Assembly (NCBI GenBank): GCA_000442015.1
Contig: KE561216.1
Coordinates: 1 to 63,870 of the forward strand
From: Rozella allomycis CSF55
Taxonomy: Eukaryota
DNA length: 63,870 nt
Direction of reading: 5' to 3'
Numbering within the stretch: position 1 is the stretch's first letter; the number at the start of each line of letters is the position of its first letter. The notes beneath the pieces were generated by a model. The model worked only from the letters and a program-made list of their open reading frames with translations, had not been told where the DNA came from and did not search any database. Shown piece after piece: positions 2,260 to 63,400 of this stretch. A program made the position numbers and the translations under genes.

Positions 2260-4103
2260 ATGTTTAGGATTGCCACGAAGCAAAAGAAATTATTTAATCT
2301 TAAAGGTCTATTTCACTGCAATTATTCGCAGAGCCTTGAAAAAATTGCAAAACTTGACAATGAGAGACTGCAATTGGAAAAGGAAATGAGACAATTTGAA
2401 GAAGAAGTTAAACAATCAACAACTGAAATTACAAATGAATTAATTCTAGAAGACATCAATGAAGAAGACGATGATTCAAATCCACGTAGAAAATTGTCGC
2501 CTGAATATGAAATGGCAAAAGTACGGCCTAGACAGGCCGTTCTTCCGCCTATTCTCGAAGACAATATCAAAAAACTACTATACAGTAATTAAATAACAAT
2601 CGAATATAATTAAAAGAATATCCGCAGGCTCATCTCAAGAATGACGTCCACAAATTCCGCGAAGCGATCCGATCCCCAATGGCTCAAGAAACAGTCTACA
2701 CGAAAAGAGTGAAAGACGAATATCGAAAGAAGCTGTGGAATGGAATAAACTTTGAGCGCGATGAACATGCGCTTGATAAATTGGAGCAAATGAAGAGGGA
2801 AGAAGCGATAGACAAGGCTGGACAAAGGAGTGTGCCTATAGTTATTGAATATGGAGCGAAAGAGTCTATGATTTATTGCGCGTGGCAGCTTCCATTTACA
2901 TTTGGACCGATATTGCGTGTGTTGAATGAAATTAAATCTAGGAACCCTGATTATGTTCCAAAGTCTATTTTGGATGTTGGGACTGGACCTGGAACGTGTT
3001 TGTGGTAATCGAGAAATAAATTTATAACCAGGGCTGCTAATGAGGTTTGGGGTGATGTCAAGGAAATGATTGGAATGGATACCTCAAGCGACATGATAGC
3101 AATGGCAGAGAATTTAAATACAGGTAATTAAAATAATTGGGTTTGAGAGATAAAAATGGTGACAAAATATTAAAGAACGCAAAGTTTCAAATGCACATGT
3201 CGTATTTAAACGTTGTAAGAATTTCAATAGGGAAACAATAAAGGAACCGCGTCACGATGTTGTTATTTCAAGTTTTGTATTATTGGAAATTCCAGAAGAG
3301 AAAACCAGATTGGAATTTTATGATAGATTGTGGAACCAAACGAGTGATTTTCTAGTTTTGATTGAGCGTGGATCACCGCAAGGGTTTAAGTATATTGCAG
3401 AGGCGAGAAAATATCTTTTAGAAAGGGAAAATGGACCAATGCAGGGACTTTACACTTCAATGGATGAAAATGGAGAAGAAAGTATTTATAAAATTGTTCC
3501 TCAACTTAAAGGAGAAAGAGCCCATGTTTTCGCTCCTGTAATTGTTATTTTTTTGATTGATAAAGTGCCCTCATGATGGAATTTGTCCAATACTAAAATT
3601 GAAGAATCATTGCCATTTTCAAGTCGATTCGCGATTAACAAAATTTCAAGTAAAAGTTTGAATTAAAAATGAAAGCAAAATATTTCAAATTACAAAGAAA
3701 ATAAAGTCCCACAAAAGTTTTCATACGTTGTATTGAGAAAGAAGCCACGTCCAGATAACGAACACAACGCAGATCTCACCTTTCCAGGTATGCAGATTAA
3801 AATAGGTTTTGAATAGAAAATTTGGCAAATAAAAGTGCGCATTGGCCTAGAATCACAAGAGAAACAATGAAGAGGGGCGGGCATGTGATTGTTGATGTTT
3901 GTGATAACGATGCAACGATGAAAAGATTGCTTTGTACAAAGACCCAGGGAACGAGTGTTTTCAAGGAATCAAGGAAGAGCAGATGGGGTGATCTATGGCC
4001 CCATGAATCAAAATCAAAGCCACGTGAGATTACAGATTGGGATAGAGGAAATAACAATCTCACAAAATACATTAATCTATTCCTAGGAAAGCCTCAAGAA
4101 TAA
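2260..4103 (+). CDS. RSM22: Mitochondrial small ribosomal subunit assembly methyltransferase-like protein Rsm22/METTL17
   Basis: ILDVGTGPGT, LVLIERGSPQGF, HVFAPCPHDGICP, KRGGHVIVDVC, RKSRWGDLWP across short introns. Confidence 0.9.
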
Positions 4104-4181
4104 TTCATTTGTATAAATTAATTTTCATTTCATAGTTCTAACTTTATGATTTAAATTATCAATTCATATCTATTGCCTCTA

Positions 4182-4414
4182 TTAATCTTCACGTTCTAAA
4201 ATTTCCCTCTGCCTTTCTCTCAAACCACTTTTAGCTTCTTCCTGCTGTCTCTCTCTTTCCTTCTTTTCCAATATCTTTTGCTTCACCACCTATCACCCAA
4301 TTGCAACCAAAATACCTTTTCATTCTCTCGCTTATAAGTGTTAACAAAATACACAACCGATACAGTAAACACTGTAGAACTTATAATAGCAGTATACCCT
4401 TTCCATGTTGCCAT
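4182..4414 (-). CDS. Small single-TM protein, PET117-like cytochrome c oxidase assembly factor
   Basis: MATWKGYTAIISSTVFTVSVVYFVNTYKRENEK + one short intron + charged coiled-coil tail VVKQKILEKKERERQQEE...; size and layout resemble PET117. Confidence 0.5.
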
Positions 4415-4431
4415 ACCTGCAACCCCTGTAA

Positions 4432-5664
4432 ATGTTTGTACTGCGCAATATGCAGCGAGTGCGTCCATGGACCCGAGTATTTTCATTCGCTAAATCGTAT
4501 TCCACTACTGCAAAACTGCCAGTGCCTAGTAGAGTGCCGTTAAGCGATGAAGAGATTCAATCGCTTCAAATGAGTTTAAAGACACATAATCTGAAGCCTG
4601 AAGAGCTGATCAAGGGAGAAGTTGATGTGGTCGATTACCATGAAGCTAAATATTTGGTGGTGGGTGTTGATTATGATGAAGCTGATGAAAAGTTTGATCC
4701 TGCCAAGGTTAGTTTGGAAGAGGCTATGGAAAATATTAAAAAGTAATTAATCGTTGTGGATTTGAATAGGTAATTGAACATTAGTAGATTTGAATAGGTA
4801 ATTGAACATTAGTAGATTTGAATAGGTAATTAATAGCAGTCCTTTTGAATAGGTATGATAATGTTGGAAAGAAATTGTTGTATAATGAAGCAGCTTATCA
4901 TAAATTTTTGGGTGATTTCACTCAAGAATTGATGAGCAGGGGTTATCCAGGTTCAGGGTTAGTTGGTCCGATTGATGAGCATTCAGGTCTTTTCAAGAGT
5001 AATTAAAATAAAAGAGATATAAAAAGAACAAGTGTATGAAAAATTTGCCGAGGCGAAGATTGAATGGTTTAAAGGGGATACAACGTTGCAAAAGACGAAT
5101 AGAATGTTTACATGGTTTGGATTTTTTTCGTATCTTTTAGCAAATCAATATTTTCCTGTTCATGATCAATTGTTGGAACTTTCAGCTTTATTCTTTGCGA
5201 TGAGATTTATGAAGAAATTCTTCTTTGGTGATCAAGTCGTTGCGTCAATCAACACACACAGCAATGAAAGAGAAACGTTTATGAATCCTTTAACGAAACA
5301 GTTTGCTGAAATGGGAAAGAATGCGAATAAATTTAAAACTTTTGCATTGTTTGGAAAGATGAATGAAGATTTGTTTTCAATGATTAAAGAGAATTTGAAA
5401 GAGGAAGGGAAATTGATGGAATTGAAAGAGAAAAATGTTAAATTGACGGAAATTAAATCTCAGCTGGATAGAAGAGCCCGCCAAGATGTTGAAAAGAAGA
5501 GACAAGAAAGAATTGAAATTCTTCAAACTCTTCATGCAAGGGTTTTGGAAAGAATTAAAGATGAATCTTTTGTAAATTTCATAAACTTTAATTAATTTTA
5601 GCAAGAAAAGTTTTTAAGTCAATGTTTATCTGATCTCAAAAATTTGGCTACAAAAGCTAAATAA
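4432..5664 (+). CDS. ATP4: Mitochondrial ATP synthase subunit b (Atp4/ATP5PB), 354 aa as modelled
   Basis: Presequence-like N-terminus; exons 4432-4742, 4853-4998, 5027-5571, 5602-5664; C-terminus EIKSQLDRRARQDVEKKRQER...VLERIKDESFQEKFLSQCLSDLKNL resembles subunit b. Confidence 0.7.
4743..4852 (+). repeat. Intron made of four abutting GT..AG units (27, 28, 28, 27 nt)
   Basis: GTAATTAATCGTTGTGGATTTGAATAG|GTAATTGAACATTAGTAGATTTGAATAG x2|GTAATTAATAGCAGTCCTTTTGAATAG. Confidence 0.9.
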
Positions 5665-5713
5665 AAATTACCCCATCCCCTGGACAAATCGCTTTTATTT
5701 TTATTTTTCAAAA

Positions 5714-6382
5714 CTAAGCCCCAAATTTAGATCTTTTTTCAATTTTAAACAAAACTTCATCTAGAAATTGATCTAATCTAATACAGCCTAAACAACCATT
5801 CTTCAAAATGCCTTTAGATTTAATTTCTCTCACACCATCACATCTCACTTTGCCTGGACAAATATAAGTTAACGTCCATTCTATCGACAGTCCTTCTTCA
5901 CATTCAAAAGATTGTTTTGGTCTCCATCTCCTCAAATGTTCTGGAATGCATTTCCCTTCAACAATCTCTTCAAACGCCACTTTTCTTTCTTCATCATCTA
6001 GTCTTGTCAATATAGCCACAAACAACTCACTATCTGTGCTATTTAAATATGTATCAATGTCTTTATAATTATGTATCAGTGTCAAATCAGCATCTCCTAT
6101 CGATTCCACAACTGGTATTCCCAGTTGTACAGCAGTCTCATTCCATTCTCCATCCTGATCAACAATTTCAATCTTTATCCCCTTCCAAATAAACAATACA
6201 ACTTCATCTTACCTCTTCTCCTCCCACTCACAATCCCCATTCCTAGTCCCATCCTTCAATCCAAATATGCCAAACAGAGCCTTCCCCAAATGCTGCTCCC
6301 TCACCGCCAAATGTCCACTCGCACAATTCCCCACCAAATACTTGCTCTCTCTCCTCTCCTGCATAAAAACACATCCCCGCAT
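5714..6382 (-). CDS. Uncharacterised conserved protein ending ...FLDEVLFKIEKRSKFGA
   Basis: ATG 6382 (MRGCVFMQ...), one short intron joins it to ORF 5714-6196; the C-terminus recalls a plant/basal-fungal DUF ending in KYGA (from memory, unverified). Confidence 0.55.
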
Positions 6383-6405
6383 CAAAAAACTGTCTCAGCC
6401 ACTTT

Positions 6406-7518
6406 ATGACCGTCGGCACGAAGCAGTACGACGAGCGGCTCAGGCAAGTTATAGAGCTATGTTTCAAAAAGCTTGACGAGCTGTCTACTGGCGCATCTGA
6501 TCGCATGGTTCATTTCGACCGGTTCAGTGAAACAAAGTTCAAGACGGATTTAGGTAATGCGGGTGCGGTTGGTTGATGTAGAATATTTTTCAAAGACGCT
6601 GCTCGATAAGGCGGCAAAGTTTGCGCTGGTGGGGAGACTGCCGAATCCGGCTGTGTCTGAGGCGCTTGGGCTGTTGGAAACTTTGGAGCTGTTTGTAAGG
6701 ACTTTGACTGTAAGGAGGTTATGATTGTTTTGAATAGATTTTGGTGTTGACGATACCAGAGTCGAGGGGTAAATTGTTTAGAGATGATGTGAAGAGTGTG
6801 TGCACTGATCTGATTAAAGGTGAGAATTTTTGTTGGCGTTGATAGGAATCGCTTCGTTGATTAATCCGTCATTAGAAGAACCTTTGGATACGCAGATGCA
6901 TCCGGAACATCTGTTTGCTAATCATAATGCTATTTTTGATGTTTGTGAGAGAATGAAGAATCTAAGCTACAATAATTCAATGGCTATACAGAAACGATGG
7001 GACGATAGTATGGAGTTGCTGCAGGATGTAATTAATGAGATGGAGGAGCTGCAGAACGATGATGGAATGTTCGATTTCGATGATTCTGCCTTTGAAAAGG
7101 AAGGTAAATATTCATTTAAAATATAAAAGGTTCCCCATTGACGGATGATGACAAGGCGATGGTTAAAAGATGTTTAGCGATTGTTAAATTGACTAAAATT
7201 TTGTTCAAGAAATTGCTTGTTAGATGCATTAAAGATTGTCAGCCAAACACTGAAGAAAAAGTATCATGGCTTGATCAGTTGTATGAAACGTCTAAAAAGG
7301 TTCTTGAAAAAGTTGATGATTTGGGTGTTTCGCTGCATGAGACTTGCAATATTCAAATAATTTGTTTGCATGCAGCTGAACTGACGGATGTTTGTGCGAA
7401 AATTATTGATGTTGCTAAACTTTTAACTTCAGAAGAGCATTTGTCTTGGTTTGAGAAATGTGGCGATCAATATCATAGAGTTTTAGTCTCCATTCTAGAA
7501 AGGAGTCCACAACGCTAA
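6406..7518 (+). CDS. Grap2/cyclin-D-interacting (GCIP/CCNDBP1)-like helical protein
   Basis: Multi-exon; WDDSMELLQDVINEMEE and WLDQLYETSKKVLEKVDDLGVSL motifs. Confidence 0.6.
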
Positions 7519-7584
7519 TCGCTAACGCTAAATGCTTTAAAGATCTTTTTGCTAATGTAAACATAAAATACTTTATTAAAGTGA

Positions 7585-8843
7585 TTATTTTCTTTCTTTA
7601 GTTCCAATTTTCAATCTTTGAATGTGATTCATGATTCTCTTGTATCGATCAGGTTGCTATATAAAATATATTAAGAATATTATTACTTTATCCTTTAATT
7701 CATCTAGAGTAACTTTAGGTTTTGGTCGAATGACGTAATCATGAGCGGCTGGGGCTGGAATCCTAGTACCCTTGTAACTGGCGGGAATACTTTCTCTCAC
7801 ATTTGTTCTTTTAAAAGTATCCAAATTCTGTTCAGCCCTTGCTAAATCTCTGTAGTCCATGCTATGCCCGATAATTGGTCTGCTCCAAGTATCTTTTTAA
7901 CAATCAAGCAACCAATTACTCATTAGATTCAATGCCTGCTTTTTCAATTCGGCAGTTTCTCTTGGACACTTGTACATGAAATGGATAACCTTCCCTACTC
8001 CACTTTCCTTCAAATGATCCTTTTCAATAGGCAACTTTGCTAACACGCCAAGCAGAAACTTGCGAATGTCTAAACTAGGAAGAGAACCATCGTTCATTGG
8101 CTCCAACCACATTCTGATAGCCTCCAATATGCCATTGTCTAGAAAATGTTCGTATAAATCGCGTTTTCCTAATTCTTCTTCAACGAGACTCAACAATTTC
8201 AATTTCTCCAACGCAGGTTTCTTTTCTTGATTCAATTCGACATCTTTTATAGCAGCCATTTTCATCTTTTCTCTCAAAACTACAATCGCCTCATCGAGTC
8301 GCTTTNTGAAATCTTTTCTTTTATTTTACCACATCATCGTATGTATCTTTTCGCCTCTTTTTCGTCTTTTTAATTGCGTTAACAGCACTCTCAAATATTT
8401 TACGGCCTTCAATAACCTTTTCAGGTAAAGCTACTTCTTCTTGCTCTGGCTCCTTTTCCTTTCTTTTGCGTTTGCTTTGATAAAAAGTTATTNGATTAAT
8501 TAACTATTACGTCTTTTCTTTGGTATTTTTCTTGGCACCTGTTTTGCGTTTTGTTCTCCTCCTTCCATATTCTTCATCATCTTGTTCTTCGTCCTGTTCG
8601 TACAATGGCTGCACAGGTTCTTCCTGATCCTCTAGAAATTATATTACATGGATTATATGTACTTAATAGTTCCATAACTTCATCGTTGGGAATCTGCGGA
8701 ATATCGTCGTCTTTTAAATCATCGTCCGAATCACCAAAAATGTCTTTTTCTAAATTTTTCTATTATATTTTTTTCTAAATATTGTACTGGTTTATCTATC
8801 GTTCATTCTTGACGGTTATTTTACCTTGTTCTTTGTCGGACAT
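7585..8843 (-). CDS. IWS1: Transcription elongation factor IWS1/Spn1
   Basis: KPALEKLKLL, FLDNGILEAIRMWLEPMNDGSLPSLDIR, LKESGVGKVI, WSRPI; acidic N-terminus DIFGDSDDD. Confidence 0.93.
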
Positions 8844-8856
8844 TTGGAAATTTCGT

Positions 8857-10548
8857 ATGTTCCAAACCCTAACTTCAAAGTCTCAGTTTATAGATCTAAT
8901 AAGACAATATGAAGTTGTAATATACGATAATGAATTTAGATTAATCGATTATTTGCTAAGCATAATCGTCACTGAGAAATGTCTCGTGCGATTTCAACCT
9001 TTTGAAGACGATTTAGAAATAGACGAATCGTCAAAAGCCATATTACTATGTTGTTCTATTAATGAAAATCATAAAAAATGGTTAGAAGCTACGGGAAACA
9101 TTTCAACAATTACACTCGTACCAAGTGGATTAAAAGAATCGCAAAGCTTTGTAATTGCAAGCTTAGAATTGGCATTAAAAGAATCAGTTGAAAGAATTTT
9201 TGATTTTCCAACAATTTTTCCCTTATTTAATGCTGAATATGATATGAGTATTATTCAATTTCTTTCGTTCTATCTTTCAAGCAACTATGAATCCATCAAC
9301 ACGTATACAATTGGTAGTGGATCTAGCAATTTTGTTAATAAATTACAGCTAAATAAATACACTACAAATAATGGGAAAAGGTGTTCATTGATAATTTTTG
9401 ACAAGGTAACACTCAATTAATGAATTCACTTCAGCGTTTAGATTTAGCGTCTTACGCGCAACATTCAGACAATTTGATTGATCATGTAAAGAATTTATCA
9501 TGTGATGATGCTACTAACCATTTTCTTAATTATTTTGTAGAGAAAGATTATTCCACCGTTGATCAAAAGGAAGGGCTATCATTACTGAGAAAAAATGTTT
9601 TGGAAGTGCTTTCAGAGAATCTTGAAGACTTTAAACCGCCAAAGGTAAAAAATTGGAAAGTTAAATATAGATTTTAGGCAAGGTTACCCTCGCTCAACTC
9701 ACGAAATTTGCAAATTGCATCCCGCCAGAATCTCCACTTTGGTTTACACAAGCCAGGGTCTTAGAATTGTTACGGATTGTAATTAAATGTTTAGAATCAA
9801 GGTAATTACTACATTTTCTTTCCATAATAGTGAGCAACAACATTGGACGACATTGCTTGGCTTTGAAAAGATTCTATTCGCAAGTTTGGCTGAAAATGCA
9901 GCAACATCCATTGAGCCAGTTTTGGATCAACTATTGAACTTTATTTCAATGTCAACGACAAAGACTTCGGGTTTACCATTTGAAAAACTTTTATGCTTGA
10001 TTGTTTACACGTATTATTTATCTCCCGCTCATTTCATTGATTCCAGTAGGTATAAAGAATGCGAAGAAAAAAGGGCGTTGAAACTTGAGGCGTGGCACTG
10101 CGTTTGCTATCCAGAAATGCAACCAGAAAACGCAAGACAAAAGATTCAAAATTTCTTCAAAAAATTAAGAGCTGGATGCCGCGAAAGATATTCTCAAAGT
10201 TCTGTGATTAAACCAATTGTAACCCCAGAATCAGGGACTCCGTTTTACAAATCATTCTTTACCAGTTTTATGGAAAAGTTGACAGATCAGACCTTGCCTG
10301 ACGTTCCAGGCGTTTATCAAAATGAATCAAGAATTCCTAATGTTCTTGGCTCTTATATAAGCAAAATTGTTAAACCGAATTCATCTGTGACGCATCCAAT
10401 GGCTGCAGATGCCGTTTATGTTGTAGTTTTGAGTGGATTGACTGCATGGGAATTAAAGCAGTCGCTTCCGTTTGTCAATGAAAAGATCAAGATAATCAAT
10501 TTAGGATACTGCACTCAAACTGATCTAATTCAGCAACTCTTAAACTAG
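8857..10548 (+). CDS. Sec1 family domain-containing protein 2 (SCFD2/MIP3-like)
   Basis: SLIIFDKRLDLASYAQHSDNLIDHV and C-terminal YVVVLSGLTAWELK resemble the divergent Sec1/Munc18 member SCFD2. Confidence 0.6.
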
Positions 10549-13614: not shown

Positions 13615-13701
13615 TGGCAATGTTTTTGTTTTCTTTCCAATTACATATTGATGTAACCCTTGCAATATTTAAAATNATAGGTAACCCTTGCAGTATTTAA
13701 A

Positions 13702-14852
13702 ATGACCAGCGAGATTCCCGATACAGCAGAACGAGATCCAGCGTATTTCTCGTATTATGGAATGATTACCCATCAAGTATATTTTACGTCTAGTTGAAAT
13801 AGCAAAACATGCTGCAAGATTATATCAGAACGGGAAGCTACCATACAGCGATCACTACCAACCCTTCAGATTTCAAAGACAAGGTTGTTCTTGATGTTGG
13901 TGCAGGTTCGGGAATTCTGTCGTTTTTCTGCGCACAAGCTGGTGCCAAGAAGGTGTATGCCGTTGAAGCTAGTCCGATGGCAAAGTTGGCGGAAAAGCTG
14001 GTGAAACAGAATGGACTTGAAGATGTGATTACTGTTATCCAGGACAAGGTTGAGAATTTGGAGCTGCCTGAAATGGTGGACGTTATTGTTTCTGAACCGA
14101 TTGGCGTGCTTTTAGTTCATGAGAGAATGATAGAAAGCTTTATTTTTGCAAGAAATAAATTTTTGAAAAGAAATGTGACGGAAGAATGCACATGCCAAAT
14201 GTATCCATCACGAGGATCTATTTGCCTTGCTCCATTTTCTGATGCCCCATTGTATACAGAGCTGATGACTAGATACCGATTTTGGGAGCAAACTGGTTTT
14301 TATGGCGTTGATTTGACCGGTTTGAAGGAAGATGCGTTCCAACATTATTTTGAGCAGCCGATTGTTGGGACATTTGATGCAAGGACGCTGATGGCTAATC
14401 AGGTGAATAAAGACTTTGATTTTCATTGGATAAACGCGGATGATTTAATAGAGTTTGAAATACCGTTTGAATTCAAAATGAATTTTACCGGGGTATGTCA
14501 TGGCATCGCTGGTTGGTTTGATTTAGCGTTTGAAGGGACTGACTTTTATGCGACCCTGTCAACATCGCCTGCACATGAAAGAACACATTGGTATCAAATT
14601 AGGTTTGTATTCTCGAACCCATTAGCTATTAATATTGGTCAAGTTCTTAAAGGAGTGATGAAATTCAAAGTGAACAGCCATCGAAGTTACGTGATAAAGA
14701 CAGAAGCTGAGATTGAAGGAACTTGCGTGAAAATTGATTGTTCTCATAATCTTCATGAGCAGCAATACTCATTTTTGAACCCTACAAATGATATTGACTT
14801 GAAACCAGAATCAATTTGTCTTTATTCGCCACCCACGTTAAACAAAAAATAA
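13702..14852 (+). CDS. CARM1: Protein arginine methyltransferase CARM1/PRMT4 (catalytic core only)
   Basis: YFSYYG...QQNMLQDYIRT, VLDVGAGSGILSFF, IVSEPIG, THWYQ. Confidence 0.92.
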
Positions 14853-45969: not shown

Positions 45970-48900
45970 TCAACCCTTAATTTGAAAAACCGAAAACAAC
46001 TTGCCCAAATCAACCACACTCCTCAAATTAGCTCTCATCACACTGTCCACAAACATCCCAGTACTTTTATAGCATCCATTCAAATCAACCAAACACTTTT
46101 CAAACTGTACGATAGTCTTTGCAAAGCTTCGTTTAAGTTTATCTGGATTGAAGAGGTAGCTGAAATACGCCAGCTGGTTGTACAATGCCGCATCCGATAC
46201 CTATAAAAGTAAAAGATATTTGTTACTGTGGGATACAGACGGCCGCCGCACAGTGCTGATGGACACTTGTACCCATTAACAGACAGTTTATTAGTTTTCA
46301 GGCCGCATTGCGAGTTGTCGCAGATGTAGAATGAACGGTAGTATTGTCTGATAGAGTTTCTAATTGCCGCGACTATTTGGATGTACACGAGCTGTGGAGA
46401 CAAGAGTGAAGAACAGTTTGGACATTCGTAGCCGCTAATCACGTCTAGTCACATGTAAAGGTTTGATTTACTTGAATCTTTCATTTTGATTATTCCAGTG
46501 AATTCAAACGGCTTTGAACATTTGGAACAAGTGAACGCCAATTTCTTTACATTGGCAAAACGATCAATGGAATTTAGAGAGAATGTTTCTTCTTCATTTT
46601 CATTTTGGACTGAATGGTATTTTGAGCTGTCTAGCCCTAAACAGTCGGCCAATCTAGCAGAATCAGTGCCTTGGATGTGTTGACATAATCTAACAATTGG
46701 AGGCAAGATTTGTTGTTTTAGGTACCATTCAATATCAATAGATAGATTTTGTTTTTTTATTTCATCCAAGGAAAAGGCTCTTTCAGATAAATTTGAAGAT
46801 TCAGATTTGCAGATAGCATAAGCTACTGTGTCACCAATTCTAACGTTTAATCCTTTTTGTTTCATTCTGATAGCCACTTGAACGTGTGGTTGTGATTTAG
46901 CATCAGAATATTCTTCTGGTTGTTTTGTTAGACCTTTTATCAAGAGAAGTTAGGGAGTTACCTGTGATTAACTATACTCAATTAATTATACCTAACATTA
47001 ACTATAGTGAACTCGTTATACCTAACATTAATCATTCCAACTGATGATACCTAACATCACCCAACTTCAACTCATATACCTTTGGTTATTAAATACTTTT
47101 CAATATCAATTCTCCCACCCCTCATCTCATTCGCCACTGATCCCAAATAGCTATGCACAATAGCCACCAAATCTTCTCTATTCAGCCCACTCAGAATCTT
47201 ATCAAGAATAAAATTAGACACCTGCACAGACAACTCGCTCCAATCTCTCCTCACCAGATCCAGCCCTTTAGTCTCAATACTAGTTTTAAACTTGTTATTG
47301 TCAATCTCATTCAACACCAATGCTGCGTATTTCTTCTTTTTCAGCAAGAGCAAGTTTTTGAATATTCCGTCCAATTCGATTTCTAAGAGTTTGTATTTTT
47401 CATTAACTGATTTTTTAACCATTTGGGCTATTTGCTTTGCTTTGAGAACATCTTCTGTGCCAGTGTAGATCATGATAGAGTCTGTGTCACCGTAGATAAC
47501 ATCCAAGTGACATTGTTCCATGGCTAATTGGACTGTGTTTTGTAGAATTTCTCTTCCTTTTGAAGTAATCAACATTGCCAATGGTTTAGCATAGAAGCGT
47601 GAATGTGAGAAACCTAAACAACCGTACATTGAATTGGCTGTTAATTTTAATGCTTTCTGTCTAATGTCTAATTGAATTAATTCATCCTTGTTTTTATTGT
47701 CTTTCATTAACCCTTTCACTTGTCTTCTTCTCTGAACCAAATTAGCAATCAACTTTGGCAAAATACCTATTTTAAAGGAGGAGATATTTGTTACCTATTT
47801 TATAATGTTATACCCCTTTGAATTACCTATTTTATAATGTTAAACCCCTTTGATTACCTTGATCTAAATTCTTTTCAGGAATCTCTGGCAACATATCACT
47901 CTCCAATGCCTCCCTCTCCACCGTAGTAAAACAAATATTATATTCTTGTATAATAGACGGATACAAACTATTAAAATCCAACAACAACACAATCTTATCA
48001 TAGAACCCTTTCACTAAACTTTTTTAAACTATGTTACCCTTTTTAGGCTCCAACACCAACCCCCCAGAATACGATGGCTTCTTTTTTCCAACTTTTTTGT
48101 CATCCAAATCTTTAAACCCAAATTGCTTGTCGGGAACTATAAACTTGTTCTTGTGGAATTCATGCAACAACAAAAACTCGTTTCTCTCTGCTCTAGCACC
48201 ACACAATGTTCTCGACCACAAATTTCCAGCTAGATTAGTCAATTGCTTTGTTAATGGCAAGGCCATCAATTTAAACATTAAAGAAACACTCAGGATTGAA
48301 TCTTGCACACATTGCTTAAGAAATGATAATAAATTTGTTGAATTCTTGTAATAAGCTGGAATCTTTTCAAAATCAATTTCCATCTTTTTTATTCCCAGTT
48401 GAGATTCAGACAGACATGATAAAGAATAACTTTTAGATCTTAATAAATCTTTTGATACCAAATAAGTATCACAAACTATTCTTCCAGAAACTATTTGTCT
48501 CTCTCCAAACGTTGACTCACTCATCCCACCAGCTCCACTTTGCAGTTTAGGCCACACAGATCTCTTCAATCTACCCAATCTACTCCAAGTGTCTATTTTA
48601 TTATATTTCATTCTATGCAATAACACATCCAAANAATCAAACCCTAGAAAATTATGCCCAACTAGAATATCTGGATCTGTTCTATGAATAAACGCTGTTA
48701 AATAATTCAACAAACTTCTCTCATTTCTACACAATTCAATTCCAATCATCTTTTCCTTTTTTATTATCTCTTCAAACTTGAATGGAAATGGCTTATTATC
48801 CAACTGAACAACTGCTACATTGCTCTGACTAGCTTTAATCCCTTCATTTCTCTTGTCTACATGCACATTCTTATACACCAAAAATGAAACTGAAACAATC

Positions 48901-53054: not shown

Positions 53055-53251
53055 ATTTCTTTTTCAAATTTTCATATATTGAGTTCAGGAAAGCGCTTGC
53101 TGCTGTATATTCCTTCAAAAACACGGAGCACAGACGAAGTTTTTAAGTCGTACCATTAACATCTACGATTTTGATAGAAATTGTAGTTCTAACTAGCGGA
53201 AGTTCGAAAATTCAAAATTCATGATCTGGGTTTACTAAGCCACAGAAAAAA

Positions 53252-56233
53252 ATGAAGAACCTAGGGGTCAAGATCCTGATTGCTATCTTCTTGTCTTTCA
53301 GTTCTCAAAATGCTATTTTAATGCTAAAAGAGAAAAGATTAACGAATAACTCTGTTGACCTACTTCCTTCAAAATCTTTTGAAGATCTAGCTATGAAGGG
53401 GCTCGCGCTGTGCTATCTCCAACGAGCTGATGAAGCATCTCTGATGTTGAACCGACTTATCACCGAAAGCAACAGAATATCGTTGCTTGAGATCAAAAAA
53501 GCTGCCGTGCCAGTTGAAACGTTCCTCTCAATGACTCAATCTGAAGTAACTGATAAGAATTGTATGATTCCTTTTGCCACTTTTATCCATGACAAAACAA
53601 GATCTTGTTCAATTGCAAAGTACATATTAACTTCCAACTTGAATGCATTTGCACCTCAAAGAGCGTTGAATATAGTGAATGCATGTATGAAGTCTTCCAA
53701 AGACACTCAGTGGTATTTTTTAAAAACAGAATTGCTTCAATTAACAAATGATGAAAGTCTTGTGAGAACGTTCTATAAAGATGTCTTCTTGCCCGGTATT
53801 AAAGCCATTGACAATAAGAAGATGCTTCTTAACTTTATTGTCGCGTCTTTTAAATTGGCTGCTTTTCATATTCACAAATTTAACATTTTTCAGACTGCTT
53901 CTAAAGAACTACAAGAACTTTGGATAACTGAGGGATTTGAACACTACGCTGGGGAATATGTTAATGGACTTTATAATTTGTTAATAGGGAATGCCGATAT
54001 TGCACGAAGCTATTTCTTTAAAATTAGAGAAACCAATCTTGTTACACGTTTCGGAAATCAAATTCTTGCATACGAAGCCTACGTAAAATCTTTAATCAGT
54101 GATCAATCTCTCCGATTCAATGATATTTTCTATAACCTTATTAATGGCCAATACAGCGAAAGTTTTTTGAACAAGGGGTTTGATTATTTAGCAAAGGCTA
54201 TTCCTTCAAAGTATAATTTCGAAGATGTAGTCGACGGTATGGTCAAAATTATTTCGGAAGCGATGCTTTACAAAACAGAGAATATTACAAAAGCGTTATT
54301 AGATGTGTTCGGTTCTTATTTAGAGTCTAATTTTTATGAAAATGTAAAGACGGAAGTTGAGAAAAGAGTTTGCCAAAATGGACCTCAACCCTTCTTTACT
54401 GAGAGTTGTTTTACTGAATTACCAAGCATTCATTCTATTGCTCAAGTTCCCCAGGTGTATTTCTTCTCGAAAGTATTTGGGCCTATATACTCTGTCCCAT
54501 TGTTTGAAAAGGAAATGAATGTGAAGGCTGTGCATGATTTCCACGCAATAAACAAAAAGACTGCCAAAATGTTAGACAATGCTATAGTTCATTTACTATT
54601 AAAATCAAGAAACTTGGCTAAAATCTTTGACACGCAATACTTCAGTACAAAAGAACTTAATGAAAAATGGGCTCAACAACTGAAGCATCTTTCTTTTGTG
54701 ACCGATCCAATATTTGCCACTGAAAGCCGTTATTTCTATGAAAGAGTTCTTACTGATGCAGGCCGTAATCTTTTATGTAACGATATTCGAAGTTTAAATC
54801 AATTTTCATCTATATATATGTCTGCGTTGTATTTCTGTGACAAAAAGAGTTTTATCACATATTACGAAGAAAATATAAAAACTTCTAAAGGAGAAATCAA
54901 AGATTTGCTGCGTTATCTATACTTTTTGACAATGAAGTTTCAAAACAAAATCGTTACATTTCCTGAGCTTGGAATATTTTCTTTCGCGTTTACAAAATAT
55001 AGAAATATTGATGAATACGCTGATTCAGGAAAATCTGGTTTGATTTATTCTTATTTGGCATGCATTGAAGCGACTACAGCGGCAACCATATACAGTGATA
55101 AGGAAACATTGGAAAAATGGTTGAAAGTCTTTATCCAGCACGGAAATGAGTATATAACTTTAAACATCATGCAAGTCGCTGATTATCTCATTCCAAAACT
55201 TTTGTCACGTACTAAAGCATTTCCGGAGATGAATAACTTGGTATTAGAATCAATTGTTTCTTTTTCTTTCTATTCACCATTTGAAGATGAGAAGAAATTC
55301 AAAAATGTTCATTTTAACTCGGGCTTTGATGTGGCAGGAACATTGTCGAAATTGAGGAATGACTTGTTAAGCCCAAGCTTTCTGGTGAGAAATATGCTGG
55401 AAAATGACAATGATATAAATTGGCCATTGATGTCAGAAGCCTTTAGATATTATCAATCTTTCTTGTTGATGGAAACTGACTTGTATTTAAAGAAATATGT
55501 TGAAAGCCACAAGAATGGATGGAAGGCTCAAAGATCCTGTATCATTAATATTTTTCAAGTCGGGAAATTGGAAAAAGCTGAGTTCAATATCTTGTATCCC
55601 GAACAATATAAGAAGGAAATATTTGAATTGATGATTTTAAATAAATATGACATGAACAGAATGGAGGAGTTCAATTTTTTGCGCCCATTAATTTTTGATA
55701 AAAGAAGAGAAATGATAACCGATCAAACGTCAAATACAAAGAATTTTTTCGGTGGATACGAAACAGTTCATGTAAGTGGTTTTGGCTACAGTCAACCTAA
55801 ACGAAAAATTTTAATAAGCAAAGTAAAAAGAACATCAATCAAAGCTGCCACGAAATCGATTGATCGTTTGAGACAGTCAATAGGCCTCAAAAATGAACCC
55901 GCTGAAGAATGTCGAATTGGAAACATATACGTATTAAAGAATCTCAAAGAAATTGATTATTTGAACCAAAATTTTATTGATTATATGTTCATGAATAAAG
56001 ATAGTTCTTACTGTAGAGGGCACTATGACAAGATACAATCAAGAAATGGTTTGTTCAAAATGAAATACAGAGATGATTTTATTCAGCCTATGAGAATCGT
56101 TTTTGGAAGAGTTGGTCTTGATATTTACATCATAAAAATGGATAGAAGACAAAACGACAAAGCTTATCGCAACTTGGCTAAACTGGATATAACGGAAGGA
56201 TTTGTCAATGTGTTTGATATTATAATTGAATAA
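53252..56233 (+). CDS. Large secreted helical protein with C-terminal RelE-like domain (paralogue A)
   Basis: Signal peptide; 993 aa intronless; C-terminus LFKMKY...MRIVF...IYIIKMDRRQNDKAY. Confidence 0.8.
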   Translation: MKNLGVKILIAIFLSFSSQNAILMLKEKRLTNNSVDLLPSKSFEDLAMKGLALCYLQRADEASLMLNRLITESNRISLLEIKKAAVPVETFLSMTQSEVTDKNCMIPFATFIHDKTRSCSIAKYILTSNLNAFAPQRALNIVNACMKSSKDTQWYFLKTELLQLTNDESLVRTFYKDVFLPGIKAIDNKKMLLNFIVASFKLAAFHIHKFNIFQTASKELQELWITEGFEHYAGEYVNGLYNLLIGNADIARSYFFKIRETNLVTRFGNQILAYEAYVKSLISDQSLRFNDIFYNLINGQYSESFLNKGFDYLAKAIPSKYNFEDVVDGMVKIISEAMLYKTENITKALLDVFGSYLESNFYENVKTEVEKRVCQNGPQPFFTESCFTELPSIHSIAQVPQVYFFSKVFGPIYSVPLFEKEMNVKAVHDFHAINKKTAKMLDNAIVHLLLKSRNLAKIFDTQYFSTKELNEKWAQQLKHLSFVTDPIFATESRYFYERVLTDAGRNLLCNDIRSLNQFSSIYMSALYFCDKKSFITYYEENIKTSKGEIKDLLRYLYFLTMKFQNKIVTFPELGIFSFAFTKYRNIDEYADSGKSGLIYSYLACIEATTAATIYSDKETLEKWLKVFIQHGNEYITLNIMQVADYLIPKLLSRTKAFPEMNNLVLESIVSFSFYSPFEDEKKFKNVHFNSGFDVAGTLSKLRNDLLSPSFLVRNMLENDNDINWPLMSEAFRYYQSFLLMETDLYLKKYVESHKNGWKAQRSCIINIFQVGKLEKAEFNILYPEQYKKEIFELMILNKYDMNRMEEFNFLRPLIFDKRREMITDQTSNTKNFFGGYETVHVSGFGYSQPKRKILISKVKRTSIKAATKSIDRLRQSIGLKNEPAEECRIGNIYVLKNLKEIDYLNQNFIDYMFMNKDSSYCRGHYDKIQSRNGLFKMKYRDDFIQPMRIVFGRVGLDIYIIKMDRRQNDKAYRNLAKLDITEGFVNVFDIIIE

Positions 56234-56659
56234 AGAAATAATTTAAAGTTATTAGAAATATTAATATTTTTTAATTTTATGCGTTTCGTTTGATTCCATG
56301 TTTCCTATCATCAAAGATCAGACACTAAAATATCTATAATCTTTATCAAGGTCAAATTTAGTAATTTCTAGTCTGGCTCTGCTGATATTCAAAAGTATAT
56401 TCAAAATATTTCATACTCATACATCGTATCCTGTTTGAACAATTTCTTGTGATACACGCGCAGCGCACTTGCCACTTGTTGCTCTTAAAGAGAATTATGA
56501 ATGTATTATATCATTATAGTGCTTTGATTACAAAATTTGGAAAAAAATCCCAGATATATTATGGAACAATGATAATTTGATTTTGAAATTTACATCACTG
56601 TAAACGCGGTTTGCAAGTCTTCTTCTCTTCATTTGCAGGATTATGGCTGAGATCTATTC

Positions 56660-59600
56660 ATGAAATTCAAATTCACTAAAATTCAGACATGTGCGCCCAA
56701 GCCACTGAAAAAAATGTTCCCTTTCACTTGGGTTGCTTGTTGGATACTCTTTGTCAGTGTTACTTTGCAAAACAATCTAAATGCTTTAAATGAAGCTATA
56801 CGTAAAAATACGATCAATATGAATATTGTGAAGTCTTTGCCCTCTCGTTCATTGGAGCAGAAGTTTACGAAAGGTTTGGGGTATTGTTACATCGGGGAGA
56901 ATGAAGAAGCAAGAAGTATTGTGTCAAACTTTAATGATAATGCGAAGAAATATTTGTCCGATAAGAAATTTCTTTCTCAGGTCGAACAGTTTCTTGTTAA
57001 AGCAGCTAATAAGCTTGAGATTCACGACTGCTTGGTTCCATATTTGAAATTTGTTATAAAGTCATCGTCATCTTGTGCTTTGATTAAGGCTGGTTTACAA
57101 ATCAAGTTTGATCTTTACAGTATGGCGGATACGTTAACTATGGTGAACTTTTGCCTTCAAAATCATAAATCTGATCCTAGGTGGTATTTGCTTAAATTCA
57201 AAATCTTTACGCAAACTACCGATGTCTCGAAACTTGGTGAATTGTACAAGGAGGTGCTCGGCCCGGCTGCTATTTATGTAAAGGACAAAAACGAGTTGCT
57301 TAATATATTTTTCCAGTGTTTGAAGCTTGCCTCTACATATTTACCTCGACATAACATATTTAATGATAGAATAACTGACCTTCAAACAATTTGGCATCAG
57401 CATGGATTTGAGAATACAGCAGATAACTTTATCAAAGGGATATATCATCTTGTCATTGGAAGTATCGACTCCTCTAGGAGTTTTTTTCATAAGGTGTATT
57501 TCACAAATGACATTAAGGGTCTAATGTATAGCGAGGCAGAGGCTTTGACTTCTTATGTAAAATCATTTGTTGCCGATAAAACATTGACATTCACCGATAT
57601 ATTTCAAAGTATAATTAAGGAATTTACGGACAAGGAGAAACTTAAGGCAAGTTTGGAAGCTATATCATTATACATCAAGGAAGAGACTTTGCAAATTCAG
57701 GATGTTGTCTATGGGCTTATCAACATGGCCAAAGAATCTCAAGCCGAGAGCGATGAAGAAAAATTAAGAGATTACTTAAGAATACTCGGTGAGTTCCTGG
57801 ATCCAGAAACTTTTGATACAATTAAAAAATCTGTTGATGAAAATTTATGCCTTGAAAACCGAGAATCGTTTTTTGCTCAATCTTGTTTTGAACAAATTTA
57901 TATTACAGGTGTCGAACCAGGTGTCTTTCATGAAACAACCTTTTTTGAGTTGGATATGGGTCAGGATATTCATAATGCAATGAACAACTATGCATACCAT
58001 CTTTTTAATGAATCGAGAAACCGTAATAATGGAGTGGTGACAAATGATGCCCTTGTTCGGCTCCTTGTTAACGCTATTTCATTTGATTTCTTTTTTACGA
58101 ATATCGGGATCAATGGTATGAAAGAAGATTGGTTTTTGCCAATGGTGATTATAGATAAAATAGGCAAGGATTTATCAACTGGAGGGCCAATATTGTTTGA
58201 AAGGACACTCACCGAAGGAGGGAGAAAAGTTTTATGTGAAAGTGTAGATGCAAGAACCTTTTTCGGACGTTATGGTGCACTGTATGCAACTTATGTATAT
58301 TTTTGTGATGATGACGCATTTTTCGAGTTTTTTTATAATGAAAGAAGGGTTCAAGCCTCTGACTACGACTACTTTCTCACGTACTTGTATTTTTTGAAAA
58401 GAACTCTTAATGGCCAAAAAATAGATTTTCCTGGCATGGAATTATTTTCTTTTTTCTTCACAAAATATAAATCATTGGAGCTTCCTGTTGACGAACAAGA
58501 CTTCGAAGATGACTATAAGAGTATTGCCCCTTTTTTAATGTGTATTGAAGTAACCACAGCTGCATATGCGTTTATTGATGATGACCAATTTGTCTTCAAA
58601 TGGCTTTTAACTTTCGTACAGCATGGAAACGAATTAATCACGCTGCAATTACTTGAAAAAGATGATCAGGCTTTCAGAAATTTACTGCTAAAAGTGGTTT
58701 CAGTTCCTGAATACACTATTTTCTTATTGGAGGCGCTAGGATCATCAGCATTTTTTGCCCCAGTGATGAATATTGAACGTTACAAGTCAGCTGGAATTCC
58801 ATTCGGACCACATATCGAAGCTAAGCAAAGAGAATTAAGAAAAATCATCATACCAAATGAAGTAGTGAAAAGAGTTTTAGATTCTGTAGAAGAAATAAAT
58901 TGGGATATTCTTGTTGATGTGTTTAGGCTTTATCCAGAAACATACATTGAAAATCAAGATGTCTTTTTGACGAAAATCATTAAAGAGATGAAAAAGGGGT
59001 TGAGATTACAGCGTGCTTGCATCATTTATGTATTTCAAGTAGGCAAAATATCTAGTGGTGCTGAATTCAATAAAACATTTCCACCAGAGAGAATCGAATA
59101 CATATTTAACAAGATGATTGACAATAAGTTCAATTTGGAAAACATGGCTGAGTTTAGCTTCTTGAACTCTTATGTCAACGATTATAGAGCCAAACTTATA
59201 CAACAAAAACTAGAGTATCAATCAACAAGAGTTTTATCATTTTCTAGAGTTTACTCAAATTTCGATTATGGACTTCAAGCAATATCTAAAGGTACTTCAA
59301 ATGTCTCCAAAGTCCTTAAAAAGACTTTACCGCGACCAAGAGCTAAATTGACAGCTGAATCTAGCACATCTAATAACAATGCACCCAAGATCGGCAACGT
59401 TTACGTTTTAAGTAATGCCCCGGGACTTGACAATCTTACTAAAGAATTGATTCACGAGTTATTTTTTGATCCAGCCGGCAAATATGCTCGTGGCATGTAT
59501 AAGAGACTCAATGCATGCAATCTTTGTAGTATAAAATTCAAAGATGAAGCTGTGCAACCTTACAGAATCTTATTTGGAACAGAGGGAAATGATGTCTACA

Positions 59601-59704
59601 TTGTTAAAGTTGGACGCAGAGTGAACAACAAGGCCTATAGACAGCTGGTGAATTTTAAAAAGGGAGATGAATTTATAAATGTAGCGTCCCTTTTCAACAA
59701 TTAA
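56660..59704 (+). CDS. Large secreted helical protein with C-terminal RelE-like domain (paralogue B)
   Basis: Signal-like MFPFTWVACWILFVSVTLQ; colinear with paralogue A; C-terminus LCSIKF...YRILF...VYIVKVGRRVNNKAY. Confidence 0.8.
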   Translation: MKFKFTKIQTCAPKPLKKMFPFTWVACWILFVSVTLQNNLNALNEAIRKNTINMNIVKSLPSRSLEQKFTKGLGYCYIGENEEARSIVSNFNDNAKKYLSDKKFLSQVEQFLVKAANKLEIHDCLVPYLKFVIKSSSSCALIKAGLQIKFDLYSMADTLTMVNFCLQNHKSDPRWYLLKFKIFTQTTDVSKLGELYKEVLGPAAIYVKDKNELLNIFFQCLKLASTYLPRHNIFNDRITDLQTIWHQHGFENTADNFIKGIYHLVIGSIDSSRSFFHKVYFTNDIKGLMYSEAEALTSYVKSFVADKTLTFTDIFQSIIKEFTDKEKLKASLEAISLYIKEETLQIQDVVYGLINMAKESQAESDEEKLRDYLRILGEFLDPETFDTIKKSVDENLCLENRESFFAQSCFEQIYITGVEPGVFHETTFFELDMGQDIHNAMNNYAYHLFNESRNRNNGVVTNDALVRLLVNAISFDFFFTNIGINGMKEDWFLPMVIIDKIGKDLSTGGPILFERTLTEGGRKVLCESVDARTFFGRYGALYATYVYFCDDDAFFEFFYNERRVQASDYDYFLTYLYFLKRTLNGQKIDFPGMELFSFFFTKYKSLELPVDEQDFEDDYKSIAPFLMCIEVTTAAYAFIDDDQFVFKWLLTFVQHGNELITLQLLEKDDQAFRNLLLKVVSVPEYTIFLLEALGSSAFFAPVMNIERYKSAGIPFGPHIEAKQRELRKIIIPNEVVKRVLDSVEEINWDILVDVFRLYPETYIENQDVFLTKIIKEMKKGLRLQRACIIYVFQVGKISSGAEFNKTFPPERIEYIFNKMIDNKFNLENMAEFSFLNSYVNDYRAKLIQQKLEYQSTRVLSFSRVYSNFDYGLQAISKGTSNVSKVLKKTLPRPRAKLTAESSTSNNNAPKIGNVYVLSNAPGLDNLTKELIHELFFDPAGKYARGMYKRLNACNLCSIKFKDEAVQPYRILFGTEGNDVYIVKVGRRVNNKAYRQLVNFKKGDEFINVASLFNN

Positions 59705-60140: not shown

Positions 60141-60441
60141 AGGCCCAGATTTTCTCCTGCATGGGATCATTTTCCGAAAGTTTTTTTAGTATGGAGGACT
60201 GGAAATTACAGATCTATTAATTTTCCCAGGTAGTCAGACGACGATGGCATTTGTGATCTACTGACAGCATTTCAAATGCGCTGGGTTGTGTAGAATAATG
60301 GATTTTGTAAATTTGACCTGGATTTGAAGATTACTGGCTGCTGTGATGGTGCTAACAGTCGGGAGATACTATTTTTAACTTGTGGCGTAGTGAAACATGG
60401 GGCAATATAGAAAAAGTTTTGTTATTCTCAACCCTGGTCGC

Positions 60442-63400
60442 ATGAAATATTTTGTTCTTTGGACTACCTGTGCTTACTTCTTTAGTGCGTTTGCACTCTG
60501 TGAAGATTTAAGAAAGTACGAAACACTCAAGGACCGCCTTGCTGACGAGATCTCAAAAGGAAAAATTGAATATCTCCCATTTTATGACGAGCCTCTTTTT
60601 ACTCCTGTTGATGGTCTCACTGACTTTTTCAAGCTACTTGTTCGGGACAACGAAGTTGAGTTGGTGAAAGGGATTACTGAACATGCATATGACCTTCTTT
60701 TCTCTTGGAATCATGCAAGCGAATCGATATTTACTTTTGCCCTTAAAGAAAAGAGATTTGAAATCTTTAAAATTCTTGTTAATGCTGTTAAGAAAGAACA
60801 TATGAAATTCATAGATGTTAAAGTGACCACCACGGATTCTTTGATAGCCACAGCTGTTGCCTTGAAAAAATTTGAATATCTTGATTATTTGGTCTCAAAT
60901 AAGTTTTTTAATATCGCCGATATTGAAGCCGCGTTGGATGTTGTTGATGTTAATCAATCAGTTTCTCTTATTGCCGAGCTTTTCGGCTATGAAATTGTGG
61001 AAAATAACGATTCCAGTGAAACCAATATAGCTAATATAAGAGAAGCTATAACTAGCGGTCATCAAATTTATTCTCGGCTCAGAAAACACACTGATAGTCT
61101 ACCAAATATGTTGAAGCCGAAAGCGCAACAAGTTAGAACGATCGATGGACCTCCTGCTGTGAACAAATATAGATCTCTTGCTCCTTTGAAGACTTATGAA
61201 CATTCCATGCATGATCTTGTTGATATAAGCAAACTTTCTGTGTATACGGCATGGAAAACGGTACTTGAAGTAGTAAAAAATATGATCACGCCCTCTCAAC
61301 TGCTCACTGGAACAACAGCTGATAATTTGAATACTTATGTTATGAATATATCTCGCGATAACAAGATTCTTGCCAATGCAATCTTTTATGCCTTGTTTGG
61401 TCCCGGATCAAGCCTATTAGGACTCGATAACGAATTCCAAAAAATTTATCGTGTTTTTAAGAACCATTTTACTAATATATCGGCGAAACATCTCCTATTG
61501 TTACTGACTCATAATGGTTGTCACAATTTGATTGCTAGTTTTCAACTAAAAGTAATCGAATTATTACTTTGTGATTTTCCTGATTCTCATTACATATTGG
61601 CACAGCACATTACAGATACATGGGAAAAATATAGTAAGGAGCGACTGTTGCCATATTTGGCCTTGCTCCAACGTCATCTTGATATTAATGATTCCAAAGT
61701 GAAACATGTATCAAGGAAACTAATAGCGTATCTTTTCAGTAAAGAGAGGTTTGATTTACTACACATAATAATGTCAAGTGAGTATGCACCCTTGGACCTT
61801 CCTTTAACGAATTACTTTAATGTTGCTCAACAGTTAATAGTATCCGCCGAAGCGAAAGATATAATTTTCGAATTATATAAAATAGACACTATCAAGGAAA
61901 ATTTTAAAAGGGCGGTATTTGGCAATCTAAATTTAAGTAGTGATAAATTAAGAAGCACCTTATGCAATGGCAAGGTTGACCTCGAAGTTATCACATTGTT
62001 CATTGCATTAGTTCCTGAGGAACTGGAAAGATTAAATAGCAGTGGTGAAACAATAGAAAACACATGTGAGACCAACCGTATTATATTTAAATATTTTGTC
62101 GACGAAAAGAAAAGGCGTGGAATAAAACCGATTCCACAAAGATACGAGGATCGAAATGGTTATATTACTCTTATGATGCCATATACAGGAACTCCATTGA
62201 ATCAAATTGACGACAAAGAATTCTATTTCCCAACCTATAATTATGAAAAGTATGTTAGACTCGAAAGTGGACAAGTTGTTGAACATTTACCATATTTAAT
62301 TGAACAAAGGCAAGAAGATCTAATCAGGTATTATATAAGAGTTATATCTGATGATTCTCTTTTGGATCCAAGAAGATCTTATCTTTCTGATGCTGTTATA
62401 AATGGTGATTTGAATTTGGTTAAATTATTGGTTGGCTCGAATAATGATGAAAGATACTTCTCCTTCTTTTTATCTTCTAAAGAGTTACCAAATCATTTAG
62501 TTTATCAAATTATTGAATTGAGGCGAATTGAAATACTCAATTATTTAATGGACATGGGTGTTATTAAAGAAGAAACTCTATTCGCATGTTTACAAACATT
62601 TAAAGATCGTCAAAAGGTTGTTGAATTCTTAAAGGAAGTTCAAAGTGTTGCTTCTCCCTTTTTGGAATATGTTTCTGCTGTTCAAAGTGAAGTGTCTTTT
62701 GACAAAATGAGCACCGTTTTATTGGATTCATTGAATTCTAAAAAGCTATTGTTGCCTCTTAAACCTAAACTTCTGCCTCAATTATTTTTCTCCAATGATA
62801 AAAATGAAAATTCTATCAAATCAGTTCTTGATCCGCTTTTCAATAAAAGAAAAAATAGAATGGTAATGGTAAAAGAAATCCTCGGAGAAAACCCCGAAAT
62901 ATTTTACACTGAAGCTATCTTTTTTCATATGGTTAAGAAAGACATTCAATTGTTAAAATTTGTTCTTGAAAATACAAAAGAGTTTCACGTCTATTTACAA
63001 AATCTCTACCTTGAAGATTCCAATACAAAGCAATCATATTTCGAAAAAGTGCTAAGCATAAATCCTCATTTGATATCTATTCTTGTTAACTCTGGTGCCT
63101 TTCCACTTTCCTTTCGTTTGAATAGCTCATTTAACGTTGCTCAAAGAATATTGGTCTCTGATGTTTACAATTCGCTTCGCAACTATAATCAAGATGAAGT
63201 TAGGGAAGCATTGACTCAAGTTAGTCTTGGAATGAACTTTTCTCTTAAAATGTACTTCGAAGCTGCTAGAGAAATTTATGATGAAGACTTTGTGAAATAT
63301 TTGGTTAACCTTGAAAGGACAAGCGTTTTACGTAAAGATTATTACGGTGATGATATCTTTGCCTACTGTGAAAAGAATTCTTTTGTCAGAAAACAAACTG

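Follow-up and report, generated by a model that had tools for sequence, protein, structure and literature searches.

Several described systems share features with an intron array in an ATP synthase gene of Rozella allomycis. Recursive splicing at zero-length exons, or ratchet points, is documented in Drosophila (10.1101/006163), and zero-nucleotide-exon recursive splicing is described for a few S. pombe introns, such as that of SPNCRNA.445 (10.1101/226894). As at the sites presented in the accessible parts of these reports, a 3' splice site in Rozella abuts a 5' splice site, and successive steps can rebuild the 5' site. However, the same accounts place the Drosophila and S. pombe sites in a 336-nt or a very long intron and describe no arrays of copies, whereas the Rozella intervening sequences, of 91–146 nt, consist wholly of three to five full-sized mini-introns that copy each other. 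Stepwise removal is demonstrated by RNA data in these accounts of Drosophila and S. pombe, whereas for Rozella we infer it from sequence.

Fungal stwintrons likewise place several intron units at one intron position. In the example of the Lipomyces reticulon-like gene, U2-type units undergo consecutive splicing, and an origin by duplication of splice elements has been proposed (PMC7138796). As characterized in the available portion of that work, stwintron units are nested, with one interrupting the splice signal of another, whereas each Rozella unit is complete and sits next to its neighbour without overlap.

Intron gain by tandem genomic duplication is a further precedent, for which several models exist (PMC4974935, PMC2891723, PMC3265369). 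Cryptococcus CNN00420 gained introns by repeat expansion; the gained introns are located in a repetitive region and are identical to other introns of the gene (PMC2395259). To the extent that the accessible text of these papers covers it, new introns arise there, as they seem to in Rozella, as identical or nearly identical copies via slippage, unequal crossing-over or conversion. The Rozella repeat unit is the intron alone, which adds no coding sequence and leaves the protein unchanged. In Cryptococcus, by contrast, the repeat unit reportedly carries coding sequence, so that exons separate the copies.

Genomes with ultra-short introns, including those of Paramecium and other ciliates, microsporidia, dicyemids, and myxozoans, have an intron length peak below about 30 nt according to the available parts of two sources (PMC13644364, PMC5014332), and intron lengths in the Rozella sequence also peak sharply below about 30 nt. 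Introns of ~30 nt in R. allomycis are mentioned in passages of one published paper, and Rozella is missing from the ultra-short-intron lineages listed in the introduction of PMC13644364. In the accessible text of the literature on ultra-short-intron organisms, no mention of tandem intron chains was found, and searches of the open-access literature and bioRxiv, as far as their accessible text extends, did not turn up any description of complete ultrashort introns arrayed in tandem. The known kinds to which this locus relates are recursive-splice sites and tandem duplication as a source of new introns, of which the side-by-side array of whole mini-introns is a variant. The Rozella lineage is described, in the portion of the literature available, as sister to microsporidia, most or all of whose introns are lost according to the accessible part of PMC6349667. 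Given this kinship, the arrays may also be informative about the fate of introns in genomes that undergo reduction.

The array described here comprises 110 nt that we consider, with somewhat better than even confidence, to be four complete spliceosomal mini-introns separated by zero-length exons, probably born by slippage and removed unit by unit. The origin of new spliceosomal introns and the limits on intron length are long-standing open questions, and such arrays represent a natural experiment on both, in which whole introns are copied in place with the protein unchanged. The analysis covers one window, the whole 63,870-nt stretch of R. allomycis CSF55 DNA.

The ATP4-like gene and its intron array

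The gene was delimited by its open reading frames (ORFs) and by comparison with the closest database protein, P0001, which has 354 residues, is 99% identical, and is listed in one source as a hypothetical protein of Rozella allomycis CSF55. Its features are the following:

4432-4742, + strand: exon 1 of the ATP4-like gene, from its ORF; ends in phase 2 with AAA AA and matches the first 104 residues of P0001
4743-4769, + strand: chain unit 1, putative 27-nt mini-intron, GTAATT...TTTGAATAG; splice-signal score 13.9
4770-4797, + strand: chain unit 2, putative 28-nt mini-intron; splice-signal score 12.6; 0.82 identity to unit 1
4798-4825, + strand: chain unit 3, putative 28-nt mini-intron; letter for letter the same as unit 2
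4826-4852, + strand: chain unit 4, putative 27-nt mini-intron, GTAATT...TTTGAATAG
4853-4998, + strand: exon 2, starting GTATGA and ending in phase 1; P0001 reads ...ENIKKYDNVGKK...
4999-5026, + strand: single 28-nt intron, placed by frame logic; P0001 reads ...SGLFKKQVYEK...
5027-5571, + strand: exon 3, with the Mt_ATP-synt_B domain (Pfam PF05405)
5572-5601, + strand: single 30-nt intron; P0001 has the C-terminus ...DESFQEKFL...
5602-5664, + strand: exon 4 with the stop codon, matched to P0001

Exon 3 matches Pfam PF05405 (Mt_ATP-synt_B) with an E-value of 1.3e-6 and 28.6 bits, above the cut-off of 21.7 bits. The same family is also precomputed for P0001 and for P0002, a homologue of 357 residues and 48% identity that is encoded on a 1106-nt contig and found in JGI only. 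By its domain, the host gene is identified as that of mitochondrial ATP synthase subunit b, and ATP4, the name used in an earlier note on this DNA, is a fair one. The match of P0002 to the ATP4-like protein is full-length and takes in an unusual N-terminal extension of ~150 residues; this extension is therefore not an annotation error, and an unsequenced relative exists. On the minus strand, a 68-residue ORF with no Pfam match (4283-4489) overlaps head-to-head with the annotated ATP4-like start at 4432 (+). Either one of the two starts is mis-set, or the 5' ends of two genes overlap.

The 110 nt at 4743-4852 (+) consist of four abutting units of 27 + 28 + 28 + 27 nt with nothing in between, and all four start with GTAATT and end with TTTGAATAG. 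Direct reading of the window thus agrees with the earlier note, which had proposed these four units with the same coordinates and ends. The note had also described units 2 and 3 as identical and units 1 and 4 as diverged, and Tandem Repeats Finder concurs, reporting a period of 28 over 4759-4831 with 2.6 copies and 100% matches. At three positions inside the array (4769/4770, 4797/4798, and 4825/4826), the junction AG|GTAATT sets a 3' splice site directly against a 5' splice site. The pattern GTAATT-N(12-24)-TGAATAG has four matches in the window, all four inside the array; 0.08 were expected, and four or more occurred in none of 100 shuffles.

The reading frame that begins at 4432 meets a stop, the TAA in the first GTAATT, and is open again at 4853. 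From the phase 2 donor at 4743, the AG at 4851-4852 is the only reachable one that restores the downstream frame, and all 110 nt must therefore be removed. The claim that the frame survives removal of all four units is accurate: AAA AA up to 4742 joins G TAT GAT from 4853 to give ...KK YDNVGKK, and the same letters bear out the observation that the downstream exon begins with GTATG. P0001 joins ...ENIKK straight to YDNVGKK..., the array being absent from the annotated protein, and P0002 aligns without gaps across both exon junctions (those of the chain and of 4999-5026). Judged by frame and homology, none of the 110 nt codes for protein. The nearest N lies at 8306, so that no assembly gap is close by, as the note had stated.

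Short introns and further chains in the window

The standard code applies in this DNA, which is gene-dense, with a GC content of 34–40% (about 35% in most 4-kb windows) and ORFs in short pieces. Three intron-free ORFs of ~1000 residues are arranged in tandem (53225-56230, 56651-59701, and 60394-63474, all +) and match no Pfam family. With 30% identity across about 1000 residues, the first and second are old tandem paralogues. A low-complexity ORF of 260 residues (29727-30506, −) with Lys/Arg/Glu repeats (KRRNEEKRKRRN...) adjoins an ankyrin-like ORF.

Candidate introns with a GTA donor that bridge two open frames number 12, 12, and 14 at lengths of 26, 27, and 28 nt, against roughly 1–5 at neighbouring lengths beyond the peak. 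A rule-based pick yielded 26 single introns of 23–33 nt, with 14 of them at a length of 27 or 28 nt. Two single introns were checked by hand:

3005-3031, + strand: single 27-nt intron of Rsm22
46445-46471, − strand: single 27-nt intron of the gene for DNA polymerase alpha (Pol alpha)

Since introns of about 27 nt are normal in the window, each ATP4 unit has the size of a full intron for this genome. Another Rsm22 intron (3124-3175, +) is 52 nt long and cannot be tiled into GT..AG units. It is composed of 26 + 26 nt; the first half reads GTAATT...GAGAG, and the second starts with ATAAAA, one base off a GTAAAA donor. Because of this start, the intron must leave in one piece, which argues against a strict length limit and indicates that more than 33 nt can apparently be removed in one step. 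One may speculate that it is a decayed two-unit chain.

Both strands of the window were scanned for abutting GTA..AG units of 20–34 nt. Three loci with chains of at least three units were found, the ATP4 array and two chains in Pol alpha, where Markov simulation gave an expectation of 0.06; three loci were reached in 0 of 200 runs, for order 1 as for order 3. The two Pol alpha chains are as follows:

47767-47857, − strand: Pol alpha chain A, 91 nt, with units at 47857-47827 (31 nt), 47826-47795 (32 nt), and 47794-47767 (28 nt)
46934-47079, − strand: Pol alpha chain B, 146 nt, five abutting putative mini-introns of 29 + 29 + 30 + 30 + 28 nt

Both gaps in Pol alpha are already visible in a plain ORF map of the window, and the chain borders match a solved structure (PDB chain 8g99_A) residue for residue. 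At chain A, the upstream exon ends with Q, corresponding to residue 573, and the next exon begins with G574; at chain B, ...YLITK extends up to residue 802, and G-LTKQPEEY follows from 803 on. Abutting junctions of the AG|GT type number two in chain A and four in chain B, and a 5' GT and a 3' AG are present in all four ATP4 and all eight Pol alpha units. Unlike in stwintrons, no unit of either gene is nested in the splice signal of another; the units abut without overlap, and their ends are intact.

The splice signals of the ATP4 units score 12.6–14.3, compared with 11.0 ± 2.5 for the single introns (leave-one-out) and 1.7 ± 5.0 for 1672 GT..AG decoys. Chain A scores 12.7–14.4, and chain B is weaker, at 4.6–8.0; three of its five units reach the score of the lowest single intron (6.5), and two (6.2 and 4.6) fall below it. 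In the aligned chains, the GTA and AG columns are invariant in 15 of 15 cases versus 29 of 75 for other columns, a difference that is formally significant but partly circular, these letters having been required in the scan, and that we give little weight. Constraint shows less circularly in unit length: every one of the 12 units, even in the diverged chain B, measures 27–32 nt, which is within the single-intron range of 23–33 nt (mode 27/28).

Tiling was also applied to 1686 ORF-consistent GT..AG candidates of 40–200 nt, of which 13 are tileable. Four of these 13 rows represent the three chains (ATP4 once, chain A once, and chain B twice, one version running a further 21 nt into the exon that follows). 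Each of the remaining nine is a single intron joined to coding sequence and was rejected as a chain. The scan of both strands had also flagged 9779-9830 (23 + 29 nt), which was rejected because frame logic removes only the first 23 nt and the second ‘unit’ codes.

In ATP4 and Pol alpha, whose structures were checked against homologues, all three long intervening sequences are chains, and the remaining identified introns (two in ATP4 and four in Pol alpha) are all single. Chains of mini-introns are a recurring architecture of this window and not a peculiarity of ATP4. If the density of three arrays per 64 kb holds, many more would be present genome-wide.

A Pol alpha exon was also used to scan metagenomes for relatives; the 80 loci retained have identities of 47–62%, too distant for dating the arrays. 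Most of these Pol alpha loci (L001-L080) are continuous at ITK|G, and about 20 have 33–69 additional nt at that site, so that other lineages may share an intron at or close to the place of chain B.

Possible modes of removal

The units are probably taken out one at a time, a proposal in which we have moderate confidence. A spliceosome tuned to about 27 nt would join every 5' site to the 3' site closest to it, and each unit would then be excised as its own ~27-nt intron in successive rounds. Such recursive splicing would proceed most simply 5'-to-3' during transcription. With unit 1 removed, exon 1 (...AA) would meet the GTAATT of unit 2, which would rebuild the 5' splice site, and the same would recur down the array. 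Exon 1 ends with ...AAAAA and every unit starts with GTAATT; by sequence, the context of each regenerated 5' splice site is the same as the original. Retention of an ATP4 unit brings an immediate in-frame stop (AAG TAA), and in the Pol alpha chains, a stop occurs within each unit or soon after.

Alternatively, the 110 nt could be one ordinary intron with an internal tandem repeat, removed in one step through its outermost GT and AG, with the inner sites as idle by-products of recent duplication. We regard this reading as doubtful, though it deserves serious weight. The non-chain 52-nt intron of neighbouring Rsm22 shows that longer introns can be removed, and the identity of units 2 and 3 implies little time for decay. 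However, all 26 single introns picked by rule are 23–33 nt long, and the nearest-site pairing of short introns would use the inner sites. Chain B is diverged and still keeps units of 28–30 nt with usable ends, which is unexpected for idle sites, subject to the ascertainment caveat that the scan required GTA and AG. On the question of whether a short-intron spliceosome cuts 110–146 nt once or unit by unit, the arrays offer a clean test.

Unit-by-unit removal could be part of a broader picture, which we put forward tentatively and do not expect to hold in full. The spliceosome of this organism would work well only at ~23–33 nt, and most longer intervening sequences would be concatenated mini-introns that depend on obligate recursive splicing, in arrays turned over by slippage at AG|GT(A) microhomology. 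If this is true, duplication and exact deletion of whole introns would constitute a live, genome-wide turnover of introns that leaves the protein untouched.

Relatedness, origin, and authenticity of the units

The background identity among introns was set with 27 hand-listed, unrelated single introns, whose 351 pairs average 0.60 ± 0.06 (95th percentile, 0.69). ATP4 unit pairs have identities of 0.75–1.00. Units 1 and 2 of Pol alpha chain A are 0.94 identical, and adjacent pairs in chain B are 0.74, 0.71, and 0.73 identical. The last unit of chain A and that of chain B have identities of 0.50–0.66, no higher than background, and a common origin for every unit is therefore not established. Between ATP4 units 1 and 4, the first nine and the last nine nucleotides are identical (9/9 each), whereas only 3/9 are in the middle (Fisher p = 2.8e-4).

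The units are tandem direct repeats in which each copy has its own splice sites, the pattern characteristic of intron gain by tandem duplication. The earlier note had taken the array as a record of ongoing tandem duplication of a whole intron. Duplication is well founded, as the ATP4 units are related (0.75–1.00 versus 0.60); ‘ongoing’ goes further, its sole basis being one identical and one 94% pair.

A clue to the origin of the arrays is the first dinucleotide of the next exon. It is GT after all three chains (GTATGA in ATP4, GTATTT after chain A, and GTCTAA after chain B) and after 3 of the 26 rule-picked single introns (Fisher p = 0.0055), and the suggestion that the array is tied to a GT-starting exon thus gains support. 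As a consequence, the exon/intron and intron/exon borders of each chain share a short sequence, which is the 3-nt GTA in ATP4, the 5-nt AGGTA in chain A, and the 6-nt AAAGGT in chain B. A short direct repeat exactly one intron apart is the substrate that would be expected for replication slippage, a process that we infer here and that would lend the idea of the earlier note a concrete mechanism. One ancestral mini-intron may have been copied via replication slippage or unequal exchange between its two border repeats. A forward slip would yield an exact copy of the intron, and a backward slip would delete it exactly. From two copies on, the array could grow or shrink in the manner of a minisatellite, and the middles of the units would drift while their ends stay fit for splicing.

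An origin by subdivision, in which pressure for short splicing units gave a long ancestral intron its internal AG|GT junctions and true duplication was limited to identical or nearly identical pairs, appears improbable. The contrast between the shared ends and the divergent middles of ATP4 units 1 and 4 is compatible with it, as is the lack of detectable kinship between the last units of chains A and B and their neighbours. However, adjacent units exceed the background in all three chains (0.71–1.00 versus 0.60), the last Pol alpha units excepted, and identical 9-nt ends favour copying, or strong selection to one optimum, over independent origin. Subdivision also leaves the GT-starting exon after all three chains unexplained.

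Very improbable is the notion of a mobile, introner-like element whose repeated insertion produced the units. Such elements are reported from fungi in the accessible part of the literature, which gives the idea some precedent. However, a search for dispersed copies within the 63,870 nt found the unit pattern at the ATP4 locus only, where all four matches lie, and the mean identity of the chain units to the 27 single introns, 0.59–0.62, is no higher than that among unrelated introns, each chain having its own unit type.

Elsewhere in the window, a 28-nt tandem duplication (13653-13709, +) reaches from immediately upstream into the start codon of the gene for a PRMT-type arginine methyltransferase (Pfam PRMT_C). 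Its first copy has intron-like ends (GTAACC...ATAG) and contains an N at 13676, and the second continues into ATG ACC AGC.... Duplication in the 5' leader could here have given rise to a new mini-intron.

The duplication in ATP4 was also followed in sequencing runs. Nine listed runs, none recorded as RNA, contain all or part of the ATP4 locus (4300-5700), and four were compared with the window. Runs X1-X3 have the character of DNA, as X3 record 19 illustrates by crossing the Rsm22 introns without a break (2876-4788). Their contigs were built from 31-letter words and, as expected, break inside the 28-nt tandem repeat: among the matches listed, X1 and X2 contigs stop at 4788, and one X1 contig resumes at 4802. 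A 43-nt contig of X3 spans 4774-4816 with no differences and takes in the tail of unit 2 and the head of unit 3, the former unlike the tail of unit 1 and the latter unlike the head of unit 4. This contig requires two adjacent identical units, and the duplication is therefore no assembly artefact. As far as contigs of 31-letter words resolve it, the array contains at least two copies of the identical 28-nt unit.

Copy-number errors classically arise at short tandem repeats, and the 31-letter-word contigs do break at the array, but an assembler that wrongly expanded the repeat is scarcely credible and largely refuted. The X3 contig crosses the junction of units 2 and 3, and ATP4 units 1 and 4, like the units of both Pol alpha chains, differ from one another in ways that mis-assembly of a repeat cannot produce. 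The earlier note had named a single unit in raw reads as grounds for abandoning its reading, and the X3 contig is instead in line with duplication. An RNA run, X11, has a single 35-nt match (3476-3510) that is less than 90% alike and continues unlike the window.

The runs differ from the window at ~1–2% of positions, such as 18 in 802 nt in X1 record 5, and X2 has two alleles at several sites, including 4958 and 4988. Because of this divergence and these two-allele sites, the runs are not simply the source data of the assembly. X1 is strongly fragmented, with at least 107 pieces over 5.2 kb (2400-7600 of the window). Together with the divergence of X1-X3 and the alleles of X2, this suggests two diverged haplotypes or a mixed population.
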